Of a DNA stretch of 50,429 nucleotides, positions 7,616 to 36,044 are shown one piece after another. The notes beneath the pieces are model-generated. The model had not been told where the DNA came from. It saw only the letters and a program-made list of their open reading frames with translations, and ran no database searches. This DNA is from a virus (taxonomy: Duplodnaviria > Caudoviricetes). Positions within the stretch are counted from its first letter, which is position 1. Each line of letters starts with the position of its first letter. Both the position numbers and the translations under genes were made by a program. Where the stretch lies: the IMG/VR virus record IMGVR_UViG_3300021356_000031, positions 1-50,429 of that record. One strand, written 5' to 3'.

Positions 7616-7625
7616 GAGATAAATA

Positions 7626-12900: not shown

Positions 12901-15226
12901 AGATGTAGATGAGGGCCTTGCGTATCTTAAAAGAAATGATGGGCAAATAAATACAAAAGATCCATTTTATAAGTCTGTTAAGCGTGGTGCTGGCCGATAT
13001 GTAAATGAAGTAGTTTTAGATACGGGGCCTAGAGCAGCTATAAAACCTATTTGGATGTCCGATCCAAAGAAGGCTATTTTTGCTGAGCTTCTTGGATATC
13101 CTACAGCTTTTTCAAATAAAGTTTTAAAAGAGTTTGTTAGAGGTTTTTCAAAGCCTATAGATAATCCTGAAGCTTTTGCAAATGCCTTGGCAGCTTCTTT
13201 GTCTATGACAGCTGCCGCTATTGGTTTAAACTATGTTCGTAATCCTGATTCTTTTAATGATAAAAGTGGAGCAGAGATAGCGGCTGAAGGCGTATCTAGA
13301 TGGGGTGGGGCTGGTATACTATTAGATATGGTGCAAAGAACTCAAAAAACTTATGACATCACAGGTAATCCTGCTACAGCCGCGTTAGGTCTGGCTGGGC
13401 CTGTCGGTAGTGATATAGGTAGAGTAGCAAGTTACGGTAAACTAGGGCCTATCATTGGGGGCAGAATGCCGGGATATGGTCTTCTTGGTTCGCTTCCTAA
13501 TGAAACAAAAGAACAATACGATAAATTTTTTAGCGACTTAGAAAAGAAAGAAAAAAGACTGCCTTATAGGAAAGGAGGTGAAGTTGAAATAGAAAGGGCT
13601 GCTGAAGAGCCTGATGAGCGCATAGATAAAGTAACAGGCAGACCTTACGATTCTCAAGCTGGTGAAGCTTTTATTGATGAAGAGGATCGCTCTGAGCGCA
13701 AGCAGTTTGTTATTGGAGGACTTTCAAGAGCAATATCTAGAGAGCTTTCACCTTTTGTTAGTGAACTAGCTAAAACTATTTTGGGAGAAACCAAAAAAAA
13801 TAATGTAAAGGTAAGTCAAGAGGGCGCTGTAAAGGTTGCAAAGAATATTGAAGAAGCTTACTCCAGCACTGATCCAGATATGCCTGCTGATTTAGATGAT
13901 CCAGATTTTCGTGAGTTTGTATTTACAGATACAAAACAGCTGTTAAATGAAAAACACGATATGTCTATGGCTGATTTTAGAGCAGAAATGCCAGAATTTA
14001 TAGATAAAGATAATACGTTAATTATGGGGCGTGAATTTAGTAAGGCGCGTGGTTATGACGATGAGCAGATCAGAGACTTTGAAAGAGCTATGGAGCTTTC
14101 AGAAATGTTTGCTATGGAAGGCAACGATGTGATGGATGTTAGCGCCCACATAGCACAAGAGCTAGATACTATTGGTGCTAGAGCTTTAGGCACAGATTGG
14201 ATAAGTAAGTTTGATAATATTTACAAAACTTCTGCTGCCAGATATGATAACAGAGTTGTAACTTCTAAAGAAGTGCAGGCACTAATAGATGAGTTTACGC
14301 CAGAAGAAAGAAAGCTGGCTAAAAAAATATTTAGTAAAATGCCTCGCCAAGCTTTGCAATTAGATCAGCAAGGTAAACGTGTAGCTATCGACTATTCAGT
14401 TTCAGATGAGCAACGATTAGATAACTTAGATAAGTTTTTAGCTAACTCTCAAGAAAAGAATATGGTCTATCGCTCAACAGCCAGTGGTTTCTTTAATGAG
14501 TTTGATGAGGCTGTAAACATGCCGCAGGAAACAGGGCTGCATGTGGGCACTAAGGCTCAAGCGGAGCGTATGGCGTTGTTCCGCAGGGAAGATGAAGATG
14601 TGTATGATGAAGATAGTGGAATATCATCTAAAAAACTATCTAAGCGTCTTGCAGAGCCTGTGCGCGAAGGGGAGACTCCACCGCCTTTAGCAATGACTAG
14701 AGGGTTTATACGGGTGGAAAGTCCACTATTAATAGAAGATATGAGCTTTGGAACTTACTCTAATGCGACATCTCTATTTGATTCTCCCAGTACGATGGCT
14801 GCAATAACAGAGGCTGTGCTAACACAAGCTCCCAAGCTAAATGCTACTAAGTTCAGTAATGCAAAACAGAACCTGTATGAAAAAGTATTAGACTTTGAAG
14901 CTTGGCAAGAGGCTGTAACAGATGGCACCCTTAATAAAAAGAAAATGTCAGAAAAAGATTTACTTGTGGAGCGTATGAAGATAGCGGATTTAAATATTAC
15001 ATTTAGAAAAATGCTAGAAGATCAGGGTTTTGACTCTATTAAATATTTAAACTTAGCAGATACTCCTGCTGAAGAAGAAACTGTAAATGCTTTTTCTTAC
15101 ATACTGTTTAAGCCTGAGCAATACAAAACTCAAAATGCTGTAGAGTTTGATCCCAAAGATCCACGGCATAACTTTGAGCATGGGGGTAAAGTACTAACTG
15201 TTTTAAAGAGAAGGAAAGCAGCATGA
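9899..15226 (+). CDS. Very large internal virion/ejection protein with C-terminal ADP-ribosyltransferase-like domain
   Basis: 1775 aa helical body with DYFPRLW. C-terminal VYRST...GLHVGT...QGFDSIKY...YILFKPEQYK...FDP pattern resembles ART-PolyVal. Confidence 0.65.
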   Translation: MTEILKPKLNFNDENAIAEALKQTPLQKVPEAAQDSTFSVSDFKARRADDLEAVFEYKFGESDYYKALRDNVQDFAPDEIIDRLRQDSMTFSGFGTAAMLEKAPQEVKDAYGRILQDWDKTDPEGFENLTALFSNTKHLVQDPVTAATLMIGGPALPMAAQAAVKKELGKKALQFMASNTRNANMTKAAAAGAGWAGLGNSSEQAVNMAADIQKDFDGIQLSTALGTGAVIGAPLGRYSEDIGAALGRGAARLNERFFRSKIGDDNIKTSVDETVVERQMVQETGAPLQRDELTLEEAQEGGLEFINEVEEVLEGIAPSPEKAQSQAKFNAKRAREAINKANKEAQEDRLYGGFVSDSELDEIAEQYDIDRENLEEIIFDYEANRDLPNVDDFDDYLIEEVGEVFYNLNKAKKRKEFAIASFSNYMANRKKGSDPVPENLERAVNALTIMAQEAGRVDPPQAIVSKAQAFTAKIGGSEKTEAEVADVLMQAEQGLISPDNARAALLKTTQKFHGKYVFGRPTKVLTKFSESPTAVRLAEMMRYDANQTFTSETKQVGMDFNETWKDYAGSLYSPLIQAMHGLRDISHGGLKDAINLDLSRALRGQKSQSEEVNKAASLIRKNVLNTVVDRNRELGFETDLIDEDYFPRLWNRSAILKDFYGTSNVFTDEKRNKLAGKGPNKFAKLLVADGEAENIQEANAIIAGMLKKKTDAEGPAGAEFVSGNSFFTARKFTNIKNDNKYEEFLDNNVENVMFQYITQSANKYTKRKVFGVDTLERSDLPFDQRKDFNTVYIDRIKAEVEAAGNTFTGQDYKDIQNLYKSMTGEGIEDYGQGGQVARDTYATLVRMSTLPLATISSLTEILLNIQKAGTKESVKGFGNALAQGTELITNGIRRRLGQQGLSDPEIFDEMRESFLMLENANISAADRLGDSSIAGHGFKQANRKFFQVTLLDGWTKTVQLSAYNTGKSLIHKNLKAIADNGTLPDSKRIGNMRDQLAALNVDVDEGLAYLKRNDGQINTKDPFYKSVKRGAGRYVNEVVLDTGPRAAIKPIWMSDPKKAIFAELLGYPTAFSNKVLKEFVRGFSKPIDNPEAFANALAASLSMTAAAIGLNYVRNPDSFNDKSGAEIAAEGVSRWGGAGILLDMVQRTQKTYDITGNPATAALGLAGPVGSDIGRVASYGKLGPIIGGRMPGYGLLGSLPNETKEQYDKFFSDLEKKEKRLPYRKGGEVEIERAAEEPDERIDKVTGRPYDSQAGEAFIDEEDRSERKQFVIGGLSRAISRELSPFVSELAKTILGETKKNNVKVSQEGAVKVAKNIEEAYSSTDPDMPADLDDPDFREFVFTDTKQLLNEKHDMSMADFRAEMPEFIDKDNTLIMGREFSKARGYDDEQIRDFERAMELSEMFAMEGNDVMDVSAHIAQELDTIGARALGTDWISKFDNIYKTSAARYDNRVVTSKEVQALIDEFTPEERKLAKKIFSKMPRQALQLDQQGKRVAIDYSVSDEQRLDNLDKFLANSQEKNMVYRSTASGFFNEFDEAVNMPQETGLHVGTKAQAERMALFRREDEDVYDEDSGISSKKLSKRLAEPVREGETPPPLAMTRGFIRVESPLLIEDMSFGTYSNATSLFDSPSTMAAITEAVLTQAPKLNATKFSNAKQNLYEKVLDFEAWQEAVTDGTLNKKKMSEKDLLVERMKIADLNITFRKMLEDQGFDSIKYLNLADTPAEEETVNAFSYILFKPEQYKTQNAVEFDPKDPRHNFEHGGKVLTVLKRRKAA

Positions 15227-16089
15227 AGTATGAAATTAAAAGAGGCGATACGTTAAGTCAAATAGCTCGTAAATTTAATATGAACTATAAAGAACTTGCA
15301 CGTTTAAATAAAATAGCTGATCCTGATAAAATTAGAGCGGGTCAAGTTATTAGTGTGCCGACTCAAGATATGAAAGCTCAAGTTGAAGCTGCTCAGCAAC
15401 CTGTACGCAAAGAGCCTATTAAACAACAAGCTCCTGTACGCGAAAAACCTGCTAGGCAGCCAGCCCCTCTGCGTCAAGAGCCTACTAAACAAGAGGCTCC
15501 TAAAAAGGAGTCTTTGATGAGTATGCCCAGCCGCCTTGCAAATCCTGTGCGTAATGAAGATCCTTTAATATCTACTAATGTGCGACAGTTTGTGTATGAC
15601 TTATTTGGAGGTTCAGAAACTTTAACAGAAAAAGATTTAAAACAAGAAGAAAAAGAAGCTTTAAAAAAGGCAGCCTTACGCGCACAAAGTCAAGGTAAAA
15701 AAGCTATTGAATACGCTGATTATGGTACTCAAGCTAAAGGGCAAAGCCAGTATGCAGATGTAGGCGGGGGTGGGGGAGCTTTAGATTTTATTACTAAAGT
15801 ATTTGATCCTCAGTATTCTATGAAGACTACCATAGGTCAAGCTCGTATAGAACAAGACGATGATGGGAATACTATTATTGTAGATCGTTATAACTTTAAT
15901 GACTCTGACGATAAGTTTAGTTTTACAGGTTTAATGGCTGGCATTAAAAAAGCAGGCTTTAGCCCATACGCGCAGCTAAGAAACATAGCTAGAGAGTTAG
16001 GAAGCGGAGAAGGTGAAGGGAGCGAAGTAAGAATTAATTTAGGTAAGCTTGCTTCTGCGGATGTTAAAAAAGTAGAAGGTCTTATTTAG
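15223..16089 (+). CDS. LysM-domain protein
   Basis: YEIKRGDTLSQIARKFNMNYKELARLNKIADPDKIRAGQVISVP is a canonical LysM. Confidence 0.9.
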   Translation: MKYEIKRGDTLSQIARKFNMNYKELARLNKIADPDKIRAGQVISVPTQDMKAQVEAAQQPVRKEPIKQQAPVREKPARQPAPLRQEPTKQEAPKKESLMSMPSRLANPVRNEDPLISTNVRQFVYDLFGGSETLTEKDLKQEEKEALKKAALRAQSQGKKAIEYADYGTQAKGQSQYADVGGGGGALDFITKVFDPQYSMKTTIGQARIEQDDDGNTIIVDRYNFNDSDDKFSFTGLMAGIKKAGFSPYAQLRNIARELGSGEGEGSEVRINLGKLASADVKKVEGLI

Positions 16090-18685: not shown

Positions 18686-18888
18686 GCCCTGTATCTCCTG
18701 TATCTAACATGCTGTTAAGCAGCTACGTAGATACCCAAACAAAACATAATGTTGTTACTGATACTACTAATGGTACTAGTAGAATTGACACTACTGTATT
18801 TAGGACTGTGTATTATCAATATGATCACGGGACGATAAGTGTAAAAAATGTTAGCTCATCTTCTCAAAATTTAAATTTATTAGTTTAA
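18679..18888 (+). CDS. Hypothetical protein, last gene of the plus arm
   Basis: ATG overlaps the end of the upstream gene; MVGPVSPVSN...QNLNLLV. Confidence 0.5.
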   Translation: MVGPVSPVSNMLLSSYVDTQTKHNVVTDTTNGTSRIDTTVFRTVYYQYDHGTISVKNVSSSSQNLNLLV

Positions 18889-19036
18889 GACGTAACCATA
18901 AAGTAAAAAATAATATTATTAGCATTGGCTGTACCGCTACAAATATAATTAAATTAGATAGTTTATATCCCCATCCTGTTATTTCTCCAATAACTATTAA
19001 TATATTAACACAGATATTAAATAAATAATCTATCAT
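18851..19036 (-). CDS. Small membrane protein, last gene of the minus arm
   Basis: 61 aa with two hydrophobic segments; ATGA overlap with the upstream gene. Confidence 0.6.
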   Translation of the reverse strand: MIDYLFNICVNILIVIGEITGWGYKLSNLIIFVAVQPMLIILFFTLWLRLKLINLNFEKMS

Positions 19037-24445: not shown

Positions 24446-25332
24446 ATAGATACTTCCTCTACTCTAGGTGGCGAAACAACCTTAGTCAAATAGGTAAGAC
24501 CTTTAGAGTATTTAAATACTCGAAGCCCATGACCATTATTGCTATCCGACCAACAATCATATTTATGGGGACAAAAGACGCATTGCCTGCTTAGTTTTTC
24601 ATTCCCTTTTGCGCCTTCAGGTATAGGATTATAACACTTCTCAGGCGGCGTGTCAAGTTTAATAGCTTTCTTTACATTTTTTATTTGACTTTTAATAGTG
24701 GGCTTGTCCATGTCATCTGGTCTAAATAAACAAAGCTCACCATTTTCTTTGTTTATCACAAGAAAGCCGCCAGCATTTGTGCCCTCATGAGCTTCATATC
24801 CAGTGAGTTGAGACAGGTATCCGAAGTCATCCTGTTCTGCTAAAGTTCCCTCTGCAAACTTTTTAAATGCAAAACCTGAAGCAGTTTTTATGTCAACAAC
24901 CTCGCCATCTATTTTGCAGTCCATGTGTCCCGTGATCCCCTCAACAACTACTTCTTTTTGTTCATCTGTTACAGTGTGCCCAGATAGCTTTACTAAAATA
25001 AGTAGTAGTTCTTCTAAGATATGACCGTATAAAAACTTTATTTGAGTAGAGGCAGAGTGAGTCCCTGTAGCCTGCTGGCTCCTCATATCATACCACAACT
25101 GTCGCGCAGGCTTGCCCACGTTACTCATACGGAGGCCCTTAGTTTGCTTTTTTGGTGTGGCCCAGTGAGCCAAAGCAGACTTCATCCTTTCGCCAAAATC
25201 ATAAATTAAATCATCTGATAATTTAATATCTTTGCCTTCAGACAAAACATTTATTGCAGAATAAATATCTTCGATCAAAGTATCTAAGTTTTTAGAAGAG
25301 TTCAAGTTGCACCCCATTAGAAAATAATTCAT
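24442..25332 (-). CDS. PD-(D/E)xK exonuclease (Cas4/RecB-like fold)
   Basis: LRMSNVGKPARQLWY, GHMDCKIDGEVVDIKT, YLSQLTGY, CVFCPHKYDCW. Confidence 0.85.
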   Translation of the reverse strand: MNYFLMGCNLNSSKNLDTLIEDIYSAINVLSEGKDIKLSDDLIYDFGERMKSALAHWATPKKQTKGLRMSNVGKPARQLWYDMRSQQATGTHSASTQIKFLYGHILEELLLILVKLSGHTVTDEQKEVVVEGITGHMDCKIDGEVVDIKTASGFAFKKFAEGTLAEQDDFGYLSQLTGYEAHEGTNAGGFLVINKENGELCLFRPDDMDKPTIKSQIKNVKKAIKLDTPPEKCYNPIPEGAKGNEKLSRQCVFCPHKYDCWSDSNNGHGLRVFKYSKGLTYLTKVVSPPRVEEVSI

Positions 25333-25819
25333 CTAGGATTTCGATAGCGACGGGGTGTTGAATGTAGAACCACTCGCCCTTACGCCCATGTGACTTAGCT
25401 AGAAGCTCGTGTGCGTCCTTCTCAGCGGTTCGTCGGTCATCAGTATCATATGCCTTGATTAGCTTGTAGTCTCTGTAGGGAGAGCTAGTCTGATACTGCT
25501 TGAGCCTATCCTCTGCGTCCACAGCCATCCCTACTTTGCACCAGCCCGGAAATGCTGGGTTGACAATGATGTAGACTTGACCCTCCTTCATTGTCTCATA
25601 GGCTCCCAAGGCGCTGAAGGCAGCGTCCCCTAGAGTCTTGTACCGTCCGGGCTTATGCAACGGATGGAACTTAGAAATTTCTTTACCATTTACCCACATT
25701 CTACGAGCATCCCTAGCTTTCACAGCGTTAGGATTATCTTTGTAGTACATAGGTTTACCAGTTTTAGGATTGATTTTAGTGTGTTTCAGCCCAGTTGTTC
25801 CCGACATTGTATTCTCCAT
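25292..25819 (-). CDS. GIY-YIG (T5orf172-type) nuclease-domain protein
   Basis: GQVYIIVNPAFPGWCKVGMA...RLKQYQT...GEWF. Confidence 0.8.
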   Translation of the reverse strand: MENTMSGTTGLKHTKINPKTGKPMYYKDNPNAVKARDARRMWVNGKEISKFHPLHKPGRYKTLGDAAFSALGAYETMKEGQVYIIVNPAFPGWCKVGMAVDAEDRLKQYQTSSPYRDYKLIKAYDTDDRRTAEKDAHELLAKSHGRKGEWFYIQHPVAIEILDELFSNGVQLELF

Positions 25820-27521
25820 CTAAAGGACATTTTAATTTTAAAGCTAGACCAGCTTCTCGTATCGCCTCAACACCTAGTTTACCTACAGTGTCAGCACTCA
25901 TTTGTTCTGTCTCAACCTGCCATTCATCATGAACATTAGCTACAACATGGGCATCAATATCTTTTATTTTTTCTTCAAAGATAATCAAAGCTTTCTTCAT
26001 AACTATTGCACCAGCACTCTGCAATAAAGTATTGAGTGCAGCGTGTTCAGATCTTACTATTAGTTTTCTACCATCTATACCTTTGATGCTTCCTTTTTTA
26101 GCCGCTCTTCCAACTCTATCTTTAAGAGTTTTGAATGATGGTAGATTATCGAAGAAAGATTTTCTAAGTCTCGCACCAACTTCTCTACCTCCCCCAGCCA
26201 CTGTGCCAAGCTTAGGATCTCCTGCTCCGTATAGGAGGGCATAGATGAAAGTTTTTGCCTGATTTCTTGATTCAAGTCCCGCAAGTCGTTGGTTAGTTGT
26301 GTGGATGTCTCCATTAATGATTTCATTTTTGTAGTCTTCATCCTCCATGTAGTGGGCTAACATTCTTAATTCAAGACCGCTTGCATCTATACCGACCAGT
26401 TTATAACCTTCAGGAACTATCCAACACTCTCTACATTCTTTTCCATACGGAGAAGAAAGACTAGGAATTTGTGCCATATTGGGACTGTTGTGTGTCATCC
26501 TACCCGTAATAGTACCATTAGAGTTTACATAGCCATGCACTCTGTCATCATCACCACTTTCTTTTATCCAAGATTTTACAGCAGCAATGCGCTTCTGCAA
26601 CATTAAATACTTAGAGATCAGTTCGGCTTGCGGTATATTTTTTATTTTACTTAATACTTTCTCATCCACTATCGGCTGCCCTGTGGGTGTAAACTTTTTA
26701 GGTTTCCATCCAAAGTCTTGTAGATATTCGCCTATCTGCTTACGAGATCCTAAGTTAAAGGGATGCCTAATAGTTCGTTTTATTTTTTTATCTCTGCATA
26801 TTATTTTGTACTCAGCCTCATTAAGTCTTACGCGAGTACCTAACTCTCTGCACTTTGCAAATTTAGAAACAGCCCCATCAGCATTGTAGCATATCCGCAG
26901 TGTAAATACCTCTTCTTTAGGCTTGAACTCTTTCTGAACTTCTCTTTTAATCACTTCGATGTTTTCTTCTAGTTCAGCCTGTAAGGAGAGGACATGCTGC
27001 CAATCTAATAAGAATCCTTTGTCTCTTTGTTTATTTAACAGAGCATACACTTTCTGCTCTATATCTACAGATTGTGCTGAGAAACCCTTAGCCTCAGTCT
27101 TTAGTATCTTGTATACTTTAGCATTTAAAAGCACATCGTTAACACAATATTTTAGCATCTCATTTGAGTACTGACTAAAATCTTCATGGTCTAACTTACG
27201 TTGCCCTAGCTTCATACCCCAAGATCCAAGGCTGTGTCCGCCTTCTCTAGTGGGATTTATCAGCCTAGACAATACTAGTGTATCCCGAAGGATACACTTT
27301 TCAGACAGGTCTACACCATAAAGATCTTTTATTACGGGTATATCAAAGCCAATGATATTGTGACCTATAAGTTTATCTGCCTTACTTAGCAAATCAACAC
27401 CTTCTTGTAATTCAGATGGTGTAAACTTATAGATTACATCATTGTCTATGTCATACGCTACAATACAAAAGATAACTGAATAGTCTAGCCCGTCAGTTTC
27501 AATGTCAAATACTAAATTCAA
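25776..27521 (-). CDS. DNA polymerase family A with 3'-5' exonuclease (T7-like)
   Basis: FDIETDG, GHNIIGFD, DASGLELR (motif A), RNQAKTFIYALLYG (motif B), VHDE (motif C). Confidence 0.97.
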   Translation of the reverse strand: MNLVFDIETDGLDYSVIFCIVAYDIDNDVIYKFTPSELQEGVDLLSKADKLIGHNIIGFDIPVIKDLYGVDLSEKCILRDTLVLSRLINPTREGGHSLGSWGMKLGQRKLDHEDFSQYSNEMLKYCVNDVLLNAKVYKILKTEAKGFSAQSVDIEQKVYALLNKQRDKGFLLDWQHVLSLQAELEENIEVIKREVQKEFKPKEEVFTLRICYNADGAVSKFAKCRELGTRVRLNEAEYKIICRDKKIKRTIRHPFNLGSRKQIGEYLQDFGWKPKKFTPTGQPIVDEKVLSKIKNIPQAELISKYLMLQKRIAAVKSWIKESGDDDRVHGYVNSNGTITGRMTHNSPNMAQIPSLSSPYGKECRECWIVPEGYKLVGIDASGLELRMLAHYMEDEDYKNEIINGDIHTTNQRLAGLESRNQAKTFIYALLYGAGDPKLGTVAGGGREVGARLRKSFFDNLPSFKTLKDRVGRAAKKGSIKGIDGRKLIVRSEHAALNTLLQSAGAIVMKKALIIFEEKIKDIDAHVVANVHDEWQVETEQMSADTVGKLGVEAIREAGLALKLKCPLDGEYNVGNNWAETH

Positions 27522-29185
27522 AATGGTACCCCATCCTGTTCATCATAAAATTCATCTGGCTCATCAGCTAATATTTCTGATAGTCTACCAGTTTCATTAT
27601 CATAAAGCAAGTGTGTAGCCATACCAACATCGCCAGTGTATCTAGATTTTAGAACTCTTACATGTGTTGTACTCGCCTCCACTGGATCGTCGCTCTGCTG
27701 GTTACGCTCAAGTGCAATAACACAATCACTAAGCTGGGCTATAGATTGGCTCCCTCGCAGGTGAGATAGCCCCACAGTGATGCCTTGCTCATGCCCTTTG
27801 TTACCTTCTACTCGACGTAGATGAGATACAAGAATCATACCCGCACCAGTTTCTTCTACTAAAGATCTGAGTCGTGTCATGATGCTGTCGATAGCCCTAC
27901 GTTCATCGCCTTCAGCCATAGAAGATACAAGCATGTGCAAGTGGTCTACAATGACCCACTTACAATCACAGCCAATAGTCAGGTAGCGCAGTTTAGAAAA
28001 TATTTCTTCTATGTCGTGCTGACCAAGGTGCGAGTAGATCCACAGCCGATCTTTAGCATCGCCCTTAAAAAGATCTTCATAGTGCTTTCGCCACTGCTCC
28101 TCTGGGAACTCTTCTCTAACTTGATTAATATAAAGCTTCGCATTTGCTTCAATAGAAACTATACCATCCACAGTCCTGTTCTTGTTTTCCTCAAGAGCTA
28201 AGATGCCGACACGATCTTTAGTATTCTTAATAATAAAGTGTTCGATCTCTCTGGTGATAGAGGTCTTTCCAAGGCCGGTTCCTCCAGTGATAGTCACTAG
28301 CTCGCCCCGCCGCATACCATAAAGCTTTTCGTTTAGTCCACTCCAAGGATATGGTATAGATTCTAAACGCTCTCTATTAAAGTAACTATCGTCCATCTCA
28401 GAAACATTCACGATGCCAGAGGGAGTATATAGTTTAGCGGCCCACCAAGCAGTGACATAAGCCTGCTTACTGTTTTGCCTGAGCATGTCATTAGGATCTT
28501 TAAACTCTACAGGCATGTGTAATATTTTACTTTTGCCCGGACGTAGAATTCTTGCTACTTTCTTTGCAGCTTCCTTGCCTGCCTTGTCATTATCAAAGTT
28601 AATCACAACACAATCAAATGATTCCAGAAACTCTAGATTTTCTTTGACATCTTTGACCGCACCGCCAGCACCATTCTTAACAGAAACTACAGGCCATTTA
28701 GATCCTAACAACTCGTAAGCTGCCATCGCATCGCACTCGCCTTCGACCAAAGTAATAAACTTGCCACCAGCTTGAAAGGCTTGCTGTCCAAATAAGCCAG
28801 TGCCTTTTGGCGAGCCTTCCCACATAAAAGATTTATCTTTCACATCTCGAACTTTAGCACCGCCCATTTCATTACCATTATAGTATGGATAAAAATGATT
28901 AGTAATTTTATTAGAAGAGTCTAGTACAGATTTGACACCATATTTTTTAACTGTATCCAGAGAGATTGATCTGTCTGATAATTGATTGAAGTCTCCATCA
29001 CTGTAGTTCATTGAGTTACGTTTATAAGTTTTAAAGTCACTAACTTGATCTGGCAAGCCACCGTCCTCATAGTTTCTAAGATAAGTATTACAACTAAAGC
29101 AATAGCCGTGGCCGTCTCCATCAACAGACACGGGATCACTACCACCACATTTAGTGCAGGGCAAATGAAATTTTACAAAAGCCAT
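27518..29185 (-). CDS. Primase-helicase (T7 gp4-like)
   Basis: Zn finger CTKC...CFSC, TOPRIM EGECD/DND, Walker A GGTGLGKT, VDHLH, LRGSQSIAQLSD. Confidence 0.97.
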   Translation of the reverse strand: MAFVKFHLPCTKCGGSDPVSVDGDGHGYCFSCNTYLRNYEDGGLPDQVSDFKTYKRNSMNYSDGDFNQLSDRSISLDTVKKYGVKSVLDSSNKITNHFYPYYNGNEMGGAKVRDVKDKSFMWEGSPKGTGLFGQQAFQAGGKFITLVEGECDAMAAYELLGSKWPVVSVKNGAGGAVKDVKENLEFLESFDCVVINFDNDKAGKEAAKKVARILRPGKSKILHMPVEFKDPNDMLRQNSKQAYVTAWWAAKLYTPSGIVNVSEMDDSYFNRERLESIPYPWSGLNEKLYGMRRGELVTITGGTGLGKTSITREIEHFIIKNTKDRVGILALEENKNRTVDGIVSIEANAKLYINQVREEFPEEQWRKHYEDLFKGDAKDRLWIYSHLGQHDIEEIFSKLRYLTIGCDCKWVIVDHLHMLVSSMAEGDERRAIDSIMTRLRSLVEETGAGMILVSHLRRVEGNKGHEQGITVGLSHLRGSQSIAQLSDCVIALERNQQSDDPVEASTTHVRVLKSRYTGDVGMATHLLYDNETGRLSEILADEPDEFYDEQDGVPF

Positions 29186-29195
29186 TATGTCTCCA

Positions 29196-29219
29196 TAAAA
29201 GAAAGGGGCCGAAGCCCCT
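29196..29219 (-). terminator. Intrinsic terminator with cUUCGg loop
   Basis: Minus strand AGGGGC-TTCG-GCCCCT-TTCTTTT. Confidence 0.8.
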
Positions 29220-29224
29220 ATCAG

Positions 29225-29455
29225 TTAGTCCATACCTTCTAGGTTTTCTTGTTCAGGAGCAGTGAGTATTTCCTCTAATTCTTTAGAGAATGTTATCTCT
29301 GCTGCCTGCAATATAGAAAGCCTTTTCTTTAATACTGCACCTTCCTCACGGATTTCTCGAACAAATCCTACTATCAGCTGTCCCCTCTCAGGTAGCTCAG
29401 CAACATCATATTCTTTGTCCTCGAACGATACAGTATTTTTTAGTTCTTCACTCAA
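29225..29455 (-). CDS. Hypothetical acidic protein
   Basis: 76 aa, follows the SSB gene with a 4-bp overlap. Confidence 0.7.
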   Translation of the reverse strand: MSEELKNTVSFEDKEYDVAELPERGQLIVGFVREIREEGAVLKKRLSILQAAEITFSKELEEILTAPEQENLEGMD

Positions 29456-29877
29456 AGCTCTGCTTCCTCCTCATCTTCAATTTCAAATTCATCCGCATTA
29501 GGATCATTGTACTCTACAAGTTTTAGGACTTGCATCTTCATGAAATCGAGACCTTTGTAAGTTCGACCATTCCACTGAGACTCCCACTCCTTGTATTGTA
29601 CTTTGACATGCGAGCCATTGCCAACAGTCACATCAATTTCTTGTTTGCGCTTGTCGATCAATCCCGGCGCTTTGCGAATCATACCATTAGGCCCATTAAC
29701 TTTGCGCTTAAATACAATCGCAGGCCCCTCATCCATTTGCTTGACGGGAAAACCACGATCTTCAAAGCTCTGAGCGGTGGCTTCATCCACTACTAGATTG
29801 ACCGAATAGCACGGATCATATTTAGTATTGGGTGAAGTTACAAAAGCCCAATAAGCTGTTCCTTCAAGTACTGCCAT
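29452..29877 (-). CDS. Single-stranded DNA-binding protein (T7 gp2.5-like)
   Basis: Start at MAVLEGTAYWA with GAGG SD; VGNGSHVKV, MQVLKLVEY and an acidic C-terminal tail. Confidence 0.8.
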   Translation of the reverse strand: MAVLEGTAYWAFVTSPNTKYDPCYSVNLVVDEATAQSFEDRGFPVKQMDEGPAIVFKRKVNGPNGMIRKAPGLIDKRKQEIDVTVGNGSHVKVQYKEWESQWNGRTYKGLDFMKMQVLKLVEYNDPNADEFEIEDEEEAEL

Positions 29878-29911
29878 TTTTTTATACCTCGCGTTTGGTT
29901 TTGGTTTGCGT

Positions 29912-29940
29912 ATTATACGGACTAAAGACAACCATGTCAA
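29912..29940 (-). promoter_or_regulatory. sigma70 consensus promoter for SSB/replication genes
   Basis: Minus strand TTGACA-tggttgtctttagtccg (17 bp)-TATAAT. Confidence 0.9.
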
Positions 29941-30230
29941 GCATAATTTTCTTCCCACCGTAATTTTCTTTTTTTGCGCCCTTCTTCTTGGGCGATCCTA
30001 CTGGCATCACATCTTGCTGCATACCAATAAAGTTTATTAAGTTCCTCCTTTAACTGTCTGATTGATAAGGTTATTTTACCCTTGCCGAACATCGGTACTA
30101 CTGTGGCTTTTTTATTCCCGACTTTAATTTTACAGTTTCGCCAGCCATCTAAATAGTACCAAGTTACAAACTCATCGCTGCGCTTTGGGTTCAATAAAAA
30201 ACTTTTTAGTTTTAAAATATCTTTTGTCAC
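29937..30230 (-). CDS. Hypothetical protein
   Basis: 97 aa, basic, operonic. Confidence 0.6.
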   Translation of the reverse strand: MTKDILKLKSFLLNPKRSDEFVTWYYLDGWRNCKIKVGNKKATVVPMFGKGKITLSIRQLKEELNKLYWYAARCDASRIAQEEGRKKRKLRWEENYA

Positions 30231-32095: not shown

Positions 32096-33052
32096 TTAGG
32101 CCGCCATTGGAAATCTTGCAATTACTTGCTGTACTTTTTCAGATTTCTTAACTTGAGCAACTGGGATATCTCTTGTATTTTTACGAGTACCTACATGATG
32201 GCTTGACCAATCAGTCAAAGCATTGTAGACAGCCCAGTAATTTTCACCCATTGTTCGCTTGTACCGCATATTGTACTGTGACCAAGAATAAACCAAAGAA
32301 GAATTATTATATGCTGTCGGCATGGTCATAATTGAACGGACATCCTCACCTTCTTTTAATTTACCAAGTGCGAACTTAGAGCCTGTCGCCTCTGCAATAT
32401 AACTAAAAGCTTCCTTGCGACCAACCGGCGTGTTAGACCACTCAGCCCAGATCTCATTCTGAGTATCAAGAATATTCATTATCTTATTCATTTGATGGGC
32501 ACCCTGATCCACACTAAGCTTATTGGTATGTCGAGCCTTGTAAATTCCAGCGGTCTGCCCAAGAAATACTTGATGATTTGTGCAAGCGTTTTGCAAGGCT
32601 CCAACAGTCGCTTGGTAAGGCCATACAGAATTGAATGAATTAATATGCAGCATTTCAAGGATAGCCGTGTCACCATCAGGAGTTGTGATCTCATGATTGG
32701 GTAGCTGATGCCGTACAAAACAAACCGCACCGTCATCGCCCACTTGGATAGTTTCTTTAATATCCCGAAGATTTAAATTACTACGTTCCAATACATTACG
32801 AGCAGTATCAATCATTTTAGTATGTGACACTGGCTTGTAACGATCACCGTGGATCGCCAAGGCATCGCCAGTATCTTCGCGGTAATAAACATTCTTACCT
32901 TCAAGTTTAAGTATACCACCAAATTTATCTGTGCCACTTGCCTTATATAATACTGGCGTAGAGACAACTTCAAAGTCTGCATCGCCATAGCCAGCGTCCC
33001 GAAGATTGTCAACTGCTGAATTGTTACCGAACAAAGAAGTAATTGTGTTCAT
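32096..33052 (-). CDS. DUF932/DUF945-like protein
   Basis: YREDTGDALAIHGDRYKPVSH, INSFN, ACTN, ARHT, NYWAVYNALTDWSSH. Confidence 0.8.
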   Translation of the reverse strand: MNTITSLFGNNSAVDNLRDAGYGDADFEVVSTPVLYKASGTDKFGGILKLEGKNVYYREDTGDALAIHGDRYKPVSHTKMIDTARNVLERSNLNLRDIKETIQVGDDGAVCFVRHQLPNHEITTPDGDTAILEMLHINSFNSVWPYQATVGALQNACTNHQVFLGQTAGIYKARHTNKLSVDQGAHQMNKIMNILDTQNEIWAEWSNTPVGRKEAFSYIAEATGSKFALGKLKEGEDVRSIMTMPTAYNNSSLVYSWSQYNMRYKRTMGENYWAVYNALTDWSSHHVGTRKNTRDIPVAQVKKSEKVQQVIARFPMAA

Positions 33053-33159
33053 ACGAACTCCTGATTATAAAATAATGAGTTACCAGCTGCTCATTGTCAC
33101 TCTTTAAAGGCTCCACAAGGGAGGTGACGGGTCAGGCTTCACGGTGCCTCCAACCGTAC

Positions 33160-33209
33160 CCCTAGAAAAACTAGGAAGGTCGTAAGACCTCCTTCCTAGT
33201 TTTCTAGGG
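33160..33209. repeat. Bulged long hairpin H1 with GTC-GTAA-GAC apex
   Basis: CCCTAGAAAAACTAGGA-AGGTC-GTAA-GACCT-[CCT]-TCCTAGTTTTCTAGGG. Confidence 0.9.
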
Positions 33210-33237
33210 AGAATCTTAAAGTATTTTAACTGCGCTG

Positions 33238-34044
33238 TCAAGCGACCAACTGTAAATTATTTGGGTCTGCAAAAAAGTTAAAACTACCCTGATTTTTGAG
33301 GCGCTCTAATTTTGTAGATCCCTTGCGTGTTAATTTACCGATGGCACCGTCCTGATCTAAGAATCGCAAGTCAGTCTCATCAAAGTCTGCTAACTTTACA
33401 GTCTTACCAAACAACTGTATAGTGTCAGGTATCTTGAACTCGCCCTTGCATTCTTTAGTGTTAAAAGATATTGCAATATTGAGTCCAAGCTCTGTCGCAG
33501 TTTTAAGTTGCTGTATAGTCTTGACACTATTAAGTGATGCCGAAAATGTTAGATGATAGTTGGACAAAGTATTTCGAGCAACACGGTGTAGGACTTTCGA
33601 GTAATCGTAAAACTGTATATTAGGCAAAGATTGGACAAGATCAGACCAATCAATATCACTAGTACCATTGAGCCGAATACAATAGTTGTCGGTTTCACGG
33701 CGTAATATCTCAGCCCTCAGTCGGTCTTTAAATCCATCAGGATCTTTAAGATACTGAACAGTTTTACGAGTCATAGCTTTCTGGGCACGGGACATACCTA
33801 GTCTACCTGAAGTCCGAAGGCAAGGAACTTTACACCCAGCAACATCGGCATAGGAACATAAAGTTTTCTTAGCCACAAGATCTGCGGGTTGCAAATACAA
33901 TATACCTGTGGTATAATCCTTTTTAAGACCTTTTAAGATCTTAGTAGAGCTATTAAACCCTAACAAAGGTAGATTATAATTATATATATAATCTTCAATA
34001 GGTTTAATAGACTTCAAAGCTATTAAGTTAATACTTTTCACCAA
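33238..34044 (-). CDS. Gp88-like protein
   Basis: ILYLQPA..LC......C...CL..SGR, IRLNGTSDIDW, IQFYDYSK, NYHLTFS, DETDLRFLD. Confidence 0.75.
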   Translation of the reverse strand: MVKSINLIALKSIKPIEDYIYNYNLPLLGFNSSTKILKGLKKDYTTGILYLQPADLVAKKTLCSYADVAGCKVPCLRTSGRLGMSRAQKAMTRKTVQYLKDPDGFKDRLRAEILRRETDNYCIRLNGTSDIDWSDLVQSLPNIQFYDYSKVLHRVARNTLSNYHLTFSASLNSVKTIQQLKTATELGLNIAISFNTKECKGEFKIPDTIQLFGKTVKLADFDETDLRFLDQDGAIGKLTRKGSTKLERLKNQGSFNFFADPNNLQLVA

Positions 34045-34211
34045 TTAGCCCTCGTATTTTTTCGACGCACATCAGCACGATAGTTTTTACGATCACCAAA
34101 ATCATTAAATTTTAATTCAGATATAGTGCAAGGTATGCAGTGTATTTTATCTGATAACTTGCAAGCTACTTCTAATTTAACGACCACACCGCAATTAAAA
34201 CATTTATTCAC
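34038..34211 (-). CDS. Small zinc-finger protein (57 aa, not in ORF track)
   Basis: GTG start with GGAGG SD; NKCFNCG...HCIPC (two CxxC pairs). Confidence 0.6.
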   Translation of the reverse strand: MNKCFNCGVVVKLEVACKLSDKIHCIPCTISELKFNDFGDRKNYRADVRRKNTRANW

Positions 34212-34398
34212 CAAAGGCTTCCTCCCATTCCTGAGTTGTAATGCCTGACACTATAAATTCACGCTGGGCATCAGTCAAGTTTGGCATCGCATCTTGAATT
34301 AACATGCCACCCTGCCAGTTACTTAACTGTTCAGCAGTGATCGGCATATCAACAATGTGGCGAACACCAGTTAACATAGATTTTTTTTCGATCAGCAC
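34204..34398 (-). CDS. Conserved-looking phage hypothetical protein
   Basis: KSMLTG...IQDAMPNLTDAQREFIVSGITTQEW; AGGAG SD. Confidence 0.75.
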   Translation of the reverse strand: MLIEKKSMLTGVRHIVDMPITAEQLSNWQGGMLIQDAMPNLTDAQREFIVSGITTQEWEEAFGE

Positions 34399-34411
34399 AC
34401 TTTTCTCCTGT

Positions 34412-34464
34412 TCCCTTTTTAATCTTTAGAGGTCGTAAGACCTCCTCTAAAGATTAAAAAGGGA
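34412..34464. repeat. Bulged long hairpin H2 with GTC-GTAA-GAC apex
   Basis: TCCCTTTTTAATCTTTA-GAGGTC-GTAA-GACCTC-[CTC]-TAAAGATTAAAAAGGGA. Confidence 0.92.
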
Positions 34465-34478
34465 GCCGAAGCTCCCTT
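34456..34478 (-). terminator. Intrinsic terminator with cUUCGg loop, overlapping H2
   Basis: Minus strand GGGAGC-TTCG-GCTCCC-TTTTT. Confidence 0.85.
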
Positions 34479-34501
34479 GTAGGTTTAATTAAGACTTAAA
34501 G

Positions 34502-34747
34502 TTATTCTTCCTTAGCTTCAATCCGATTAACTACAAGCAATAACGCTTGGGCTAAATCAAACTCGCTGGTCTGGCAAGAATTATTCCTAAAAGTTTTATT
34601 CTTTAATAAATCTTTAACTCCCTCCAAGCCATCGGGTCGATCTTCAAGTAATCTTAACTGGGTATGGATTTCTCGAAACGCCTCGTCGAATATTACTAAT
34701 TCTCTTTCGACATGAGTTAGATCTAAAACTGTTTGAAATACTGACAT
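34502..34747 (-). CDS. Early hypothetical protein
   Basis: 81 aa, TAAGGA SD. Confidence 0.65.
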   Translation of the reverse strand: MSVFQTVLDLTHVERELVIFDEAFREIHTQLRLLEDRPDGLEGVKDLLKNKTFRNNSCQTSEFDLAQALLLVVNRIEAKEE

Positions 34748-34756
34748 AATATATCC

Positions 34757-34846
34757 TTAAACGTGAGTAGCGAGTTTAATTAAAATTGGAGACAGCAGAG
34801 CCGCCCAAGTAAAAAAAACAATAAAACTTAAAAAAATAAGATTCAT
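34757..34846 (-). CDS. 29-aa single-transmembrane peptide (not in ORF track)
   Basis: MNLIFLSFIVFFTWAALLSPILIKLATHV; AGGAG SD 5 nt upstream; its stop overlaps the SD of the next gene. Confidence 0.6.
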   Translation of the reverse strand: MNLIFLSFIVFFTWAALLSPILIKLATHV

Positions 34847-34857
34847 TAAAACTCCTG

Positions 34858-34877
34858 AAAAGGCCCCCGAAGGGGCC
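34858..34877 (-). terminator. Putative weak intrinsic terminator with cUUCGg loop
   Basis: Minus strand GGCCCC-TTCG-GGGGCC-TTTT. Confidence 0.7.
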
Positions 34878-34885
34878 AAGTTAAA

Positions 34886-35260
34886 TTAGATCATTCCAAG
34901 GTCAGCAGCGGTAGCGATTCGAGGGGCCGAAGAAGTTTTAAAGTTCTTGGACTGCTTTGGATTGGCAGTAATTTTAACTTCTTTGTTAGACTTTAAGTCT
35001 TCAGTCTTCAGAACTTTAACATACTTGGCAGCAGCCGAAGTCTTACCGTTGATTTTCTTGACGGAGAATAATTTATTTATGTCCCCAGCCAAAGGCTGAC
35101 CATCGTGAACGGCCTTGATCGTCGCACCAAAGCGAGCCGTGAGTTTAGCAAACTCAAATCGCTTGATGTCATTTTCACCAATATATTTGTAAGCCAAAGT
35201 CTTGGCACAAGCATATACAGCTTTATCAGTAGCAGGTTTAGTCAAATCGTATTTAGCCAT
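34886..35260 (-). CDS. First early gene, Lys/Ala-rich hypothetical protein
   Basis: 124 aa, followed by a terminator. Confidence 0.7.
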   Translation of the reverse strand: MAKYDLTKPATDKAVYACAKTLAYKYIGENDIKRFEFAKLTARFGATIKAVHDGQPLAGDINKLFSVKKINGKTSAAAKYVKVLKTEDLKSNKEVKITANPKQSKNFKTSSAPRIATAADLGMI

Positions 35261-35312
35261 AATCGTTTTCCCGATTGTGTAATTTTTCGTCGAGCCGCTG
35301 TCGGCCCTTCCT

Positions 35313-35383
35313 AGTTTTGACTATCTATAAAATTTAAAGAAGTCGTAAGACTTCTTCTTTAAATTTTATAGATAGTCAAAACT
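35313..35383. repeat. Bulged long hairpin H3 with GTC-GTAA-GAC apex
   Basis: AGTTTTGACTATCTATAAAATTTAAA-GAAGTC-GTAA-GACTTC-[TTC]-TTTAAATTTTATAGATAGTCAAAACT (32 bp paired). Confidence 0.95.
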
Positions 35384-35386
35384 TCT

Positions 35387-35710
35387 CAGCTAGTCCCTTC
35401 AAAACCTTAAAAGGTTTTGAAGGGACTAGCTGGATCGTAAAAGACCCTTTGGGTCTTTTAAATTTGGGAGTCCTTAGCTCCTCTTAGGAGGAGCTAGATG
35501 GCTGTGAAGACTTGCCAGCTAATTAGTTTTCAAATTCTTGAAAACTAAGAAAAACTTTGAAGTTTAAAGTAAACTTCAAAGACTAAAAAGACTTCTGTTT
35601 ACTTTGTAAACTAGAAGTCTTCAAAGTTTTCTGGAGGTCAAACCTCTAAAGTCTTCTTAGACTTTAGAGTTTTGGGAGGTCGCACTTAAAAGTCTTCAAA
35701 GACTTTTAAG
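35387..35710. repeat. Array of eight consecutive inverted repeats
   Basis: 35387-35432 (22-bp arms), 35438-35460, 35475-35496, 35523-35548, 35555-35581, 35588-35621, 35644-35669, 35685-35710. Confidence 0.92.
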
Positions 35711-35836
35711 AATGCGCGGGAAGGTTAGATAGTATCTGTAGTTTTTCTTAGATCTTTAGAGGGCTGGGCAGGTGGCCACACCCCCCACCTACTATATATA
35801 CTAATTCGTATACATTTTAAGCAAAAAGGAGTGTCA

Positions 35837-35922
35837 ACCAGTTTAGGCGGGTCTTTAAAGTCCTAACTGTACCCCATATGAGCCAAAAGTTGTGTTTACC
35901 AGTTTGGGCGGGTCTTCAAAGT
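35837..35922 (+). repeat. 25-bp imperfect direct repeat, 61-bp period
   Basis: accagtttaggcgggtctttaaagt (35837) and accagtttgggcgggtcttcaaagt (35898). Confidence 0.85.
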
Positions 35923-35972
35923 ACTTTAAAGTGGGAGGTATATATAGATATAGCCCCGGTGGGTCTATGAAT

Positions 35973-36001
35973 ATTATAGAGATTATTTTACGATTTGTCA
36001 A
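35973..36001 (-). promoter_or_regulatory. sigma70 consensus promoter, leftward
   Basis: Minus strand TTGACA-aatcgtaaaataatctc (17 bp)-TATAAT. Confidence 0.9.
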
Positions 36002-36009
36002 GAAAAAAC

Positions 36010-36038
36010 TTGACAAATCTGTAAACTACCTATATAAT
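36010..36038 (+). promoter_or_regulatory. sigma70 consensus promoter, rightward
   Basis: TTGACA-aatctgtaaactaccta (17 bp)-TATAAT. Confidence 0.92.
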
Positions 36039-36044
36039 AAGAGC

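Follow-up and report, generated by a model that had tools for sequence, protein, structure and literature searches.

Bulged hairpins with an invariant tip at the starts of early transcription units in a marine podovirus, and a small basic protein as their candidate partner

Three long hairpins with one and the same tip stand among the early genes of an uncultured marine phage, each ahead of a gene, and they raise the question of what reads them and to what effect. The DNA analysed here (the window) is a single stretch of 50,429 nucleotides. The replisome of the phage is T7-like, and none of its genes is recognisable as an RNA polymerase; its best cultured matches are Pelagibacter phages (51% identity for the DNA polymerase and 47% for the primase), the nearest cultured phages being of the HTVC103P type. 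To our knowledge, early gene control in marine podoviruses without their own RNA polymerase is essentially unstudied. The DUF932 protein, encoded after the first hairpin, has no match among cultured relatives, the first 12 kb of HTVC103P contains no stem longer than 9 bp and no covariance-model match, and a DNA search of the 30–38 kb region against the phage collection found nothing. The features are listed in Table 1.

Table 1 Hairpins, genes and transcription signals of the early region, with positions in the window
Feature	Position	Strand	Description
H1	33160–33209	−	Bulged hairpin: 13 bp, 1-nt irregularity, 6 bp, then tip; covariance model 56.9 bits
H2	34412–34464	−	Bulged hairpin, 21 perfect bp under the bulge; covariance model 62.8 bits
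H3	35313–35383	−	Bulged hairpin, 30 perfect bp under the bulge; covariance model 58.6 bits
DUF932 gene	32096–33052	−	Headed by H1
p124 gene, first early gene	34886–35260	−	124-aa basic orphan protein; candidate hairpin partner
Promoter P(H1)	33213–33241	−	TTGACA-17-TAAGAT; sigma70 match 10/12
Leftward early promoter	35973–36001	−	Perfect sigma70 consensus, 12/12; rightward twin at 36010–36038
Further perfect promoter	29912–29940	−	Sigma70, 12/12
Intrinsic terminator	34459–34478	−	G+C stem, 4-nt loop, T run
Untranslated hairpin-rich leader	35384–35966	−	Between the leftward promoter and H3

The initial annotation described a family of three hairpins with an identical apex, and they are real, far beyond chance: the count of the tip sequence, the folding of shuffled sequences and a covariance model agree. 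The sequence GTCGTAAGAC occurs three times in the genome, always on the + strand and each time as the tip of a hairpin, where 0.04 occurrences are expected; a count of three was reached in none of 100 shuffles, and permitting one mismatch returned the same three sites only. The covariance model finds exactly three matches in the 50-kb genome, namely H1, H2 and H3. Fold energies of the sense (minus-strand) RNA are −31.3, −37.3 and −41.5 kcal/mol for H1, H2 and H3 (z-scores −4.3, −6.4 and −9.6), and none of 200 shuffles folds as well. The + strand folds about as well as the sense strand, both as RNA and as DNA, and the palindrome centres are higher in G+C than the arms. The lower stems of H2 and H3 are perfect; the irregularity in H1 is one extra base. 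Long perfect stems are concentrated here: 10 of the 11 stems of at least 10 bp in the whole genome fall within 33.1–36.0 kb.

Each hairpin also carries three extra bases that duplicate the adjacent triplet, always on the same side as first described: on the + strand they are pyrimidines in the 3′ arm, on the sense strand purines in the 5′ arm. Because these bases repeat their neighbours, the position of the bulge is ambiguous: the distance of 5–6 bp from the loop given originally is one possible register, and the bulge can be drawn anywhere from 2 to 6 bp away (one variant permits only the register beside the TC/GA pairs). The hairpins do lie upstream of minus-strand genes, which start at 33052, 34398 and 35260.

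In relatives the family comprises 22 distinct bulged hairpins among 130 instances. The bulge is always on the 5′ (sense) side, with 3 nt in 16 hairpins and 4 nt in 6; none of the 22 has it on the opposite side or lacks it. An 8-nt core is identical in 21 of the 22, and every member has a near-perfect lower helix of about 19 bp or more, from 13+6 up to 31 bp. Conservation sits in the upper part of about 37 nt, which is all that H1, H2 and H3 have in common within the genome, and the outer stem drifts. The stems, originally called unrelated, are free in their outer part but semi-conserved over the inner 13 bp, where a degenerate consensus has purines in the 5′ arm at pairs 1–5 (20–22 of 22) and T, C/T and T at pairs 8–10. 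When 13 cores were aligned, all 195 cells paired, with changes on both sides in 11 of 13 lower-stem pairs; no shuffle in 500 reached this pattern, and slid controls pair at 33–51%. These compensatory changes around an unchanged core bear out the proposed selection on shape plus tip. Among 522 stem pairs, 515 are Watson–Crick, one is G.T and none is A.C, making a G.U-pair test for the strand uninformative; many of the double changes are transversions. Palindromes of the leader show the opposite pattern, with stems kept and loops varying. A variable outer stem, an invariant tip and bulge, and a single orientation are typical of a hairpin that is recognised by its tip as a single strand.

Searches for known relatives of this element gave little. 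No Rfam family was found at gathering score (best 35 bits against a gathering score of 71), the sub-threshold matches being microRNA precursors and similar long hairpins. The 10-mer was not seen in a phage context in the literature on either strand, the listed matches being primers or unrelated genomes. A host scan with a 17-nt pattern gave only single matches, in at least 120 bacterial or archaeal contigs of many phyla; these are background and offer no host clue. No tRNA genes were found. In a viral scan for the hairpin pattern, 34 of 61 loci were chance matches, which fell in coding sequence, in direct repeats of no relation or in short terminators that happen to have this loop.

The surroundings of the hairpins differ in kind. 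That the region from 30.0 to 35.9 kb has no consensus sigma70 promoter, as the initial annotation had it, is misleading: the perfect ones (35973–36001 and 29912–29940) do lie just outside, but P(H1), matching at 10 of 12 positions, is inside. Its −10 hexamer ends 3 nt before the base of H1 and its −35 hexamer overlaps the stop codon of a GP88-like gene. Across four lineages the stems differ but this 3-nt spacing from −10 to hairpin does not; the distant locus L321 has TTTACA-17-TATAAT, 7 nt and a hairpin, and in L322 and L323 TATAAT adjoins the hairpin base. At H2, the T run and last stem bases of the intrinsic terminator double as the hairpin's 5′ arm, and a ribosome-binding site begins 3 nt after the hairpin, followed by a GTG start at 34398. 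In a related DNA contig, where the gene cassettes on either side are swapped, this island of H2 and terminator (34402–34476) is intact, and another relative, L124, also has a terminator and then a hairpin, with a different terminator sequence. H3 stands at the end of the leader, 52 nt ahead of the p124 start codon. The leader contains a 21-bp perfect hairpin (35387–35432) as well as terminator-like and operator-like palindromes; all hairpin-bearing lineages have a leader in this style, which hairpin-less relatives lack.

Only H1 has an adjoining promoter and only H2 an adjoining terminator. The bulged hairpins have no T run, H2 being separate from its terminator, and all three are followed downstream by a further terminator at 29204–29219. 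Relatives vary in the genes they have between the hairpins, and some cassette donors have no hairpin at all. In an RNA run, one contig spans H1 (33127–33359) and another lies in the leader; as these are contigs only and DNA carry-over is possible, they are weak evidence, they cannot show RNA ends, and stretches without RNA cover in X21 carry no weight.

The best candidate for a partner is the product of the first early gene, p124; binding by an injected protein, as had been suggested, may occur but is the less favoured option. The p124 protein has a pI of 9.9, with 21 Lys and 3 Arg. No PHROG family and no Pfam family above cut-off was found for it (Pfam matches at E up to 10 were noise only), the protein atlas gave no usable match, and its predicted structure, of modest confidence (pLDDT 66), had no fold match in the PDB at E 0.001 or better with Foldseek. 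Its distribution follows that of the hairpins: all 13 loci that encode p124 have two or three of them, compared with none of the six loci that cover the early region but have no p124. Three near-complete hairpin-less relatives have DUF932 proteins 76–87% identical to that of the studied phage; p124 was not found in them by protein search or profile, the covariance model has no match there, and they have 0–1 perfect stems of at least 12 bp versus 5–7 in hairpin-bearing genomes. One contig (L139) carries hairpins and p124 with the other replisome type (primase 66% identical), so the link is with the early module and not with the type of primase. The p124 unit is closed by an intrinsic terminator both in the studied genome and in L321. 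Since p124 adjoins H3, co-inheritance may be plain linkage within one early module, and the leader palindromes, in the same module, could equally be p124 targets.

Remote homologues of p124, 35–49% identical and the only ones found, were placed on four metagenome contigs (L321–L324). All four have long hairpins between early genes, with lower stems of 19–23 bp or 11+10 bp; the bulged ones have a tip region of 11–14 nt with extra 5′-side purines, ending in GA. A bulged hairpin directly precedes the p124 homologue in L321 and L324, and an unbulged one does so in L322 and L323; in L321 and L324 a DUF932 homologue is also preceded by a hairpin of the H1–H3 family. Two of the four lineages carry other tip sequences, and L321 keeps the core of the studied genome although its p124 homologue is only about 40% identical. 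A further genome, L107, has two different tips, and its first gene is faintly p124-like (hhalign probability 6%); the 185-aa product has no PHROG family and no relatives besides itself. Tip and protein do not match one to one (L321, L107), a point against p124 as the reader.

With one hairpin per early block, always inherited with p124, the hairpins and p124 look like a new RNA control signal and its partner protein. We tentatively favour a reading in which H1–H3 are RNA operator hairpins at the starts of early transcription units, read by the p124 family in a manner like N at nut or Tat at TAR. Host RNA polymerase would make early RNA leftward from the sigma70 promoters, and the hairpins would fold in that RNA. 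H3 closes the long leader ahead of the first gene, H2 follows directly on an internal terminator, and H1 begins at about +1 of an internal promoter. Together, the invariant bulged tip and the purine-rich inner helix would form the recognition site for a lineage-specific factor, most probably p124, encoded immediately after H3; once bound to the nascent hairpin, this factor would decide what becomes of the early transcript. In the version we favour, the factor would load onto the elongating polymerase and bring about read-through of internal terminators, as lambda N does at nut and Tat at TAR. The lower helix, of at least 19 bp, would make a substrate for host RNase III, which probably also cuts H1–H3, and cutting would separate the units. 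The two leading readings, both compatible with the evidence, are RNase III sites on the one hand and, on the other, RNA elements that bind a protein, for antitermination or otherwise. More doubtful is a wider proposal: a hitherto undescribed two-part system of early transcription control in several deep lineages of abundant marine podoviruses, in which the orphan p124 family would act with long RNA hairpins that are bulged on one side, differ in tip between lineages, and stand at +1 of early promoters used by host polymerase as well as between blocks of early genes, a system unlike N–nut and Tat–TAR in origin though similar in working.

Whereas structure, conservation, covariation, placement and co-inheritance with p124 are observations, we infer that the hairpins act as RNA and not as DNA, that p124 binds them, and in which direction the effect goes; several observations pull the other way. 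p124 is only a candidate RNA binder, without a recognised family; H2 comes after its terminator, not before it; and close relatives do without the whole system. Moreover, a single G.T among 522 pairs together with many transversions is what upkeep of a palindrome at the DNA level gives, not compensation at the RNA level, and counts against the RNA reading.

The layout is close to that of lambda N/nut: the leftward early operon begins with the gene of a small basic protein, a hairpin stands between the promoter and that gene, further copies head other units, terminators lie within, and host RNA polymerase transcribes. The likeness of p124 to N is one of position, size and charge only: no relation in sequence or fold was found, and p124 is rich in Lys, with only 3 Arg, unlike the arginine-rich RNA-binding motif of N. 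In lambda, boxB accompanies boxA and has a short, bulge-free stem under a five-base loop, whereas the hairpins here have stems of 19–31 bp, a bulge of 3–4 nt and another tip. H1 and H3 lie downstream of a promoter and upstream of terminators; H2 follows its terminator. HIV TAR, which is read by Tat, a small basic protein acting on elongation, offers an analogy of architecture only: a long hairpin at the very start of the transcript, a 3-nt bulge in the 5′ arm a few pairs under the loop, and here a candidate small basic reader. However, Tat and TAR belong to a different domain of life, and the sequences are unrelated.

Rather unlikely, in our estimate, is that H1–H3 are hairpins for RNase III processing and stability without any phage partner. 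Cutting would detach the leader and separate the units, H1 would act as a 5′-terminal stabiliser on P(H1) transcripts, and the shared tip would reflect common descent or fixing of the cleavage site. The positions copy the T7 pattern: host polymerase makes a polycistronic early RNA, long hairpins precede its first gene and separate its gene blocks, and the replisome too is T7-like. At H2 a cut would leave the terminator hairpin on the upstream RNA, and the downstream RNA would start with a short leader whose ribosome-binding site is free. In T7, RNase III cuts at an internal loop within an irregular helix, whereas the helices here are perfect, without an internal loop, and the conserved part is tip and bulge. 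Tip and bulge, the most conserved parts of the element, are not known to be read by bacterial RNase III, which requires neither in a particular form. Cleavage where a transcript has only just begun (H1, L321, L322) would serve little purpose, and co-inheritance with p124 is left unexplained. Helix length suits cleavage in all lineages, the distant ones included: the available text of PMC3867540 gives 22 bp for an idealised Escherichia coli substrate, with bulges steering cleavage to one strand, and by this length rule H1–H3 have the intercistronic helix of about two turns (about 20–22 bp) of a T7-type site.

Action at the DNA level is unlikely. On that reading a cruciform or single-stranded fold would mark an origin, load the primase, offer a site for nicking, start transcription by a polymerase that escaped recognition, or modulate the adjacent sigma70 promoter. 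The near-perfect arms and the equal folding of both strands as DNA agree with it, GTC, the recognition triplet of T7 primase, stands beside the loop on both strands, and the block of large virion proteins also differs between hairpin-bearing and hairpin-less genomes (two genomes versus three). An N4 promoter hairpin is centred about 11 nt before the RNA start and requires a 3500-aa injected polymerase. N4 early promoters, according to the available text of PMC4496689, have a conserved loop and adjacent bases on a stem that is free provided pairing holds, and H1–H3 likewise number three early-region sites with a conserved tip and a free but pairing stem. Their stems, however, are 19–31 bp long with four loop bases and a bulge, against up to 7 bp and a three-base loop in N4, consensus sigma70 promoters already serve the region, P(H1) aims straight into H1, and no such polymerase gene was found; the N4-type promoter offered as one option by the initial annotation is therefore not supported. 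Neither PHROGs nor Pfam revealed an RNA polymerase in the examined ORFs of at least 150 aa, a sequence search of the PDB matched neither the 1775-aa nor the 1045-aa protein, and a scan for DxDxD or a T7-like motif C gave none; the virion proteins thus gain no support as hidden polymerases from any of these scans. The 1775-aa virion protein, moreover, has homologues in hairpin-less genomes, with which it shares a 731-aa core. No HUH nuclease was found, and unlike F-plasmid Frpo, whose −35 and −10 hexamers form within the hairpin stem, H1, H2 and H3 contain none of the promoter-like sites found. G+C-rich palindrome centres are unfavourable to extrusion, L139 shows that the hairpins are not tied to one type of replisome, and strict orientation with transcription, fixed −10 spacing and proximity to ribosome-binding sites suit RNA better. 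Very unlikely is a role as precursors of small hairpin RNAs, in which RNase III would free tip, bulge and about 13 bp and the three copies would act in trans, for example as a host-protein decoy: helix length suffices for RNase III and conservation is concentrated in the upper part, but a trans-acting RNA has no need of fixed positions relative to promoters and genes. We regard it as highly improbable that the hairpins are selfish or merely structural palindromes, or recombination linkers at cassette borders with no direct regulatory role. The persistence of the H2 island between swapped cassettes and the differing gene content between hairpins speak for linkers, and in the available text of PMC2839356 the PeSLs of T4-type phages are promoter-plus-terminator stem-loop islands between variable early genes that stay while cassettes swap and that mediate shuffling. 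Here, too, small conserved regulatory islands lie between variable early genes; PeSL copies, however, are near-identical in sequence, each with a strong sigma70 promoter, and their stem-loop is a terminator, whereas the copies here share only the upper part, which leaves little homology for exchange. The hairpin-free cassette donors also tell against linkers, and an invariant tip, one-sided bulge and strict orientation in deep lineages indicate selection on the element itself.

Returning to the favoured pairing of hairpin and p124, the signal is compact and strongly conserved, and a candidate partner can be named from sequence alone. The pair is directly testable with RNAs of about 40 nt and one 124-aa protein, natural tip variants providing ready specificity swaps. 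If true, the pairing would be a new RNA–protein recognition module and, depending on its effect, a new way by which termination is overcome or transcripts are stabilised in bacteria; if these are plain RNase III sites, they would show that tip and bulge can be conserved there for reasons not yet understood.

A minor observation concerns terminators in the two types of genome: the hairpin-less L155 has no extra terminators, yet both types share the terminator before the primase gene.

H1, H2 and H3, the three long bulged hairpins of the minus-strand early region, are strong on either strand. On the sense (minus) strand, the order of elements is the same in all three: a long lower stem, then in the 5′ arm three extra purines that copy the preceding triplet, followed by TC, a 4-base loop and GA. 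The initial annotation described an identical apex, and GTCGTAAGAC is indeed found at all three tips: it occurs three times in the window, on the + strand in every case (0.04 expected; none of 100 shuffles gives three copies). The genome has 11 perfect stems of at least 10 bp, and all but one of them lie within 33.1–36.0 kb.

The hairpin element is a real, conserved family, and a previously undescribed one, since it has no match in Rfam and the motif was not found in print in a phage context among the matches listed. Scanning viral contigs with a 17-letter pattern yielded 61 loci; in 27 the matching sequence caps a long hairpin, usually with two or three to a contig, and the remaining 34 are chance matches. 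Members missed by the pattern were recovered through protein searches with DUF932 (48 loci) and the primase-helicase (58 loci), for a total of 22 distinct hairpins in 130 instances. The bulge is on the 5′ sense side in all 22 (3 nt in 16, 4 nt in 6) and repeats the preceding 3–4 bases in 20 of these 22, the window's group, which is not so in the remote locus L321. The 8-nt core of the tip is identical in 21 of the 22. Lower stems range from 13 (+6) to 31 bp, with 515 Watson–Crick pairs out of 522 and a single G.T pair. Across the family the arms remain perfect, while neither the bulge nor the tip is ever 'corrected'.

In 13 gapless 37-nt cores, pairing is found in 195 of 195 cells, which is partly by construction because the rows were chosen by a script demanding pairing; the changes on both sides seen in 11 of the 13 lower-stem pairs are not. 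None of 500 shuffles equals this covariation, and slid partners pair at 33–51%. The inner 13 bp follow a consensus (5′-arm purine at pairs 1–5; T, C/T and T at pairs 8–10). The stems had been called unrelated; since the inner 13 bp are constrained, with a semi-fixed consensus in the 22 hairpins, this is true of the outer stem only. The proposed covariance search, run with a model built from the cores, returned exactly three matches in the window (57–63 bits), three in each of two related genomes, and zero in three near-complete hairpin-less relatives and in the first 12 kb of the cultured phage HTVC103P.

The virus record of 50,429 bases has an estimated completeness of 97%. Besides the primase-helicase and DNA polymerase genes, the leftward genes include a gp2.5-like single-strand-binding protein, ribonucleotide reductase and a Cas4-like exonuclease; the rightward arm encodes terminase, portal, capsid, tail and large virion proteins. 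None of the protein-family libraries searched recognised an RNA polymerase in the window. Among cultured phages, the closest are HTVC103P-type Pelagibacter phages, and their identity of only 51% (polymerase) and 47% (primase) indicates that the window's group is uncultured. The two gene arms diverge at 35.3–36.0 kb. The back-to-back promoter pair sits within an inverted repeat with 31-nt arms (35972-36039). The 5′-terminal part of the longest single-strand-binding-protein ORF (29452-29958) contains a further perfect sigma70 promoter (29912-29940), so that translation probably starts at an ATG further downstream; a terminator (29204-29219) lies upstream of the primase gene. Between the polymerase and exonuclease genes, a 175-aa ORF with a T5orf172/MUG113 domain (25292-25819) may be a homing-endonuclease-like insert.

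Positions of hairpins, control signals and selected genes in the window
Feature	Positions	Strand or direction	Remark
451-aa ORF	6260-7615		confined to hairpin-bearing genomes (2 vs 3)
288-aa LysM ORF	15223-16089		confined to hairpin-bearing genomes (2 vs 3)
61-aa ORF	18851-19036		confined to hairpin-bearing genomes (2 vs 3)
Family A DNA polymerase gene	25776-27521	leftward	
T7-like primase-helicase gene	27518-29185	leftward	
H1	33160-33209	either	strong hairpin
Promoter before H1	33241-33213	minus	sigma70, TTGACA-17-TAAGAT
H2	34412-34464	either	strong hairpin
Intrinsic terminator before H2	34478-34459		
H3	35313-35383	either	strong hairpin
Leader palindromes	35523-35548, 35555-35581, 35644-35669, 35685-35710		
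Early-arm promoter	35973-36001	minus	sigma70, perfect 12/12
Structural-arm promoter	36010-36038	plus	sigma70, perfect 12/12

H1 starts 3 nt past the −10 hexamer of its promoter, so a transcript begun there would have H1 at its extreme 5′ end; promoter, spacing and hairpin of this type are repeated in four lineages with differing stems. The 107-nt untranslated region from H1 to the DUF932 start (33053-33159), with a small conserved hairpin just past H1, is confined to hairpin-bearing relatives, the others having a short leader. The 5′ arm of H2 is built from the T run and last stem bases of the terminator before it, and a ribosome-binding site begins 3 nt downstream of H2. This island (34402-34476) is retained in a related DNA contig in which the flanking genes are replaced on both sides. 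At loci L121 (about 5650-5720), L115 and L139, a G+C-rich stem structure of ~50 nt with no ORF lies upstream of the H2-terminator position; an Rfam search with this cassette structure gave no match. H3 forms the end of a ~650-nt leader rich in other hairpins, and the first early gene, encoding the 124-aa protein p124, follows 52 nt further on.

Phages with a DUF932 protein 76–89% identical to that of the window split into two types. Hairpins, hairpin-rich leader and p124 all occur in one type and are all missing from the other, in which a plain sigma70 promoter lies ~45 nt ahead of the DUF932 start. p124 is encoded at all 13 hairpin loci and missing from the 6 hairpin-less loci that cover the early region, and neither protein search nor profile found it in the three near-complete hairpin-less genomes. 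These genomes have 0–1 perfect stems of at least 12 bp, versus 5–7 in hairpin-bearing ones. L139 (on the same contig as L082 and L031) is a mosaic, combining an early module with p124 (94%) and three hairpins with a replication module of the other type (primase 66%, polymerase 60% identical); the hairpins are thus not tied to primase type. A genome-wide gene comparison of two hairpin-bearing with three hairpin-less genomes, a sample too small for more, yielded three ORFs confined to the former (see table) and strong divergence of the 573-aa and 1775-aa virion proteins. The large-virion-protein block 6260-16089 (ORFs of 451, 184, 573, 1775 and 288 aa) is common to the two hairpin-bearing genomes and absent or 23–51% identical in the three others; Pfam recognises nothing in its ORFs but the LysM domain.

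p124 is basic (pI 9.9, 21 Lys), with a predicted helical N-terminal part and lysine-rich tail (pLDDT 66). It matches no PHROG family, no Pfam family above cut-off and no fold at E ≤0.001, and its close relatives form 11 clusters only. An exhaustive profile search found three remote homologues (110–124 aa, 35–49% identity); a fourth match, a repetitive 847-aa protein, was taken as spurious. A metagenome scan placed the homologues on four contigs, all of which have long hairpins between early genes, with an 11–14-nt tip region, extra 5′-side purines and a terminal GA (23–43 bits in the covariance model). L321 and L324 each have one such hairpin immediately before the p124 homologue and one before a DUF932 homologue (45% and 52% identical). 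The L321 hairpin has the window's core; the tips of L322/L323 and L324 differ from it, the L324 loop being variable and its flanks constant. L321 has a good promoter, TTTACA-17-TATAAT, then 7 nt, then a hairpin, and in L322/L323 TATAAT abuts the hairpin base. The distant singleton L107, with a leader and 5′ untranslated region recognisably akin to those of the window, has a second hairpin of the same build with a different tip ahead of its first gene. An intrinsic terminator closes the p124 unit in both the window and L321.

The free outer stem, the fixed bulged tip and an orientation that is always with transcription suggest that the hairpin acts as a single strand and is recognised at its tip; because hairpins repeatedly lie at +1 of sigma70 promoters, RNA is more likely than DNA, and co-inheritance, which extends from close relatives to homologues of 35% identity, makes the orphan protein p124 the candidate reader. 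We therefore lean, with less than even confidence, towards an RNA operator through which p124 would be loaded onto the host polymerase during transcription or onto the transcript. The pair resembles lambda N and nut in position, size and charge, and Tat and TAR in hairpin build. Against this, no domain or fold links p124 to RNA, linkage in one early module could account for the co-inheritance, tips and proteins do not correspond one to one (L321, L107), H2 lies downstream of its terminator, and close relatives do without the system. Cleavage by host RNase III would probably accompany such an operator, because a helix of ~19 bp or more is kept in all lineages, the length class of RNase III substrates (PMC3867540). 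The same helix length speaks for the main rival, in which RNase III cleavage would be the whole function; we consider this unlikely, though the strongest competitor. The RNA-operator reading is also weakened by the scarcity of G.T pairs and by the many double changes of transversion type, which resemble palindrome upkeep at the DNA level, yet a DNA-level role seems improbable overall. In its N4 form, the hairpin promoter suggested initially, it fails on polymerase, stem length and loop (PMC4496689). The family would represent phage early-operon control hairpins of a new form, with p124 as a testable candidate partner.

The leader before H3 contains further repeats. A perfect, unbulged 21-bp hairpin (35387-35432) lies 3 nt upstream of H3 and is retained in relatives, with very different stem sequences in some lineages. 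Among relatives, the four leader palindromes keep the stem sequence constant and vary the loop, the reverse of H1–H3, and look like protein-binding sites in double-stranded DNA, or terminators. Finally, the 10-mer CTTTRAAGAC has four exact copies in the leader (35502-35921), all on the minus strand, and 25 matches in the window with one mismatch allowed (10.7 expected); the inner stems of the bulged hairpins are similar to it.
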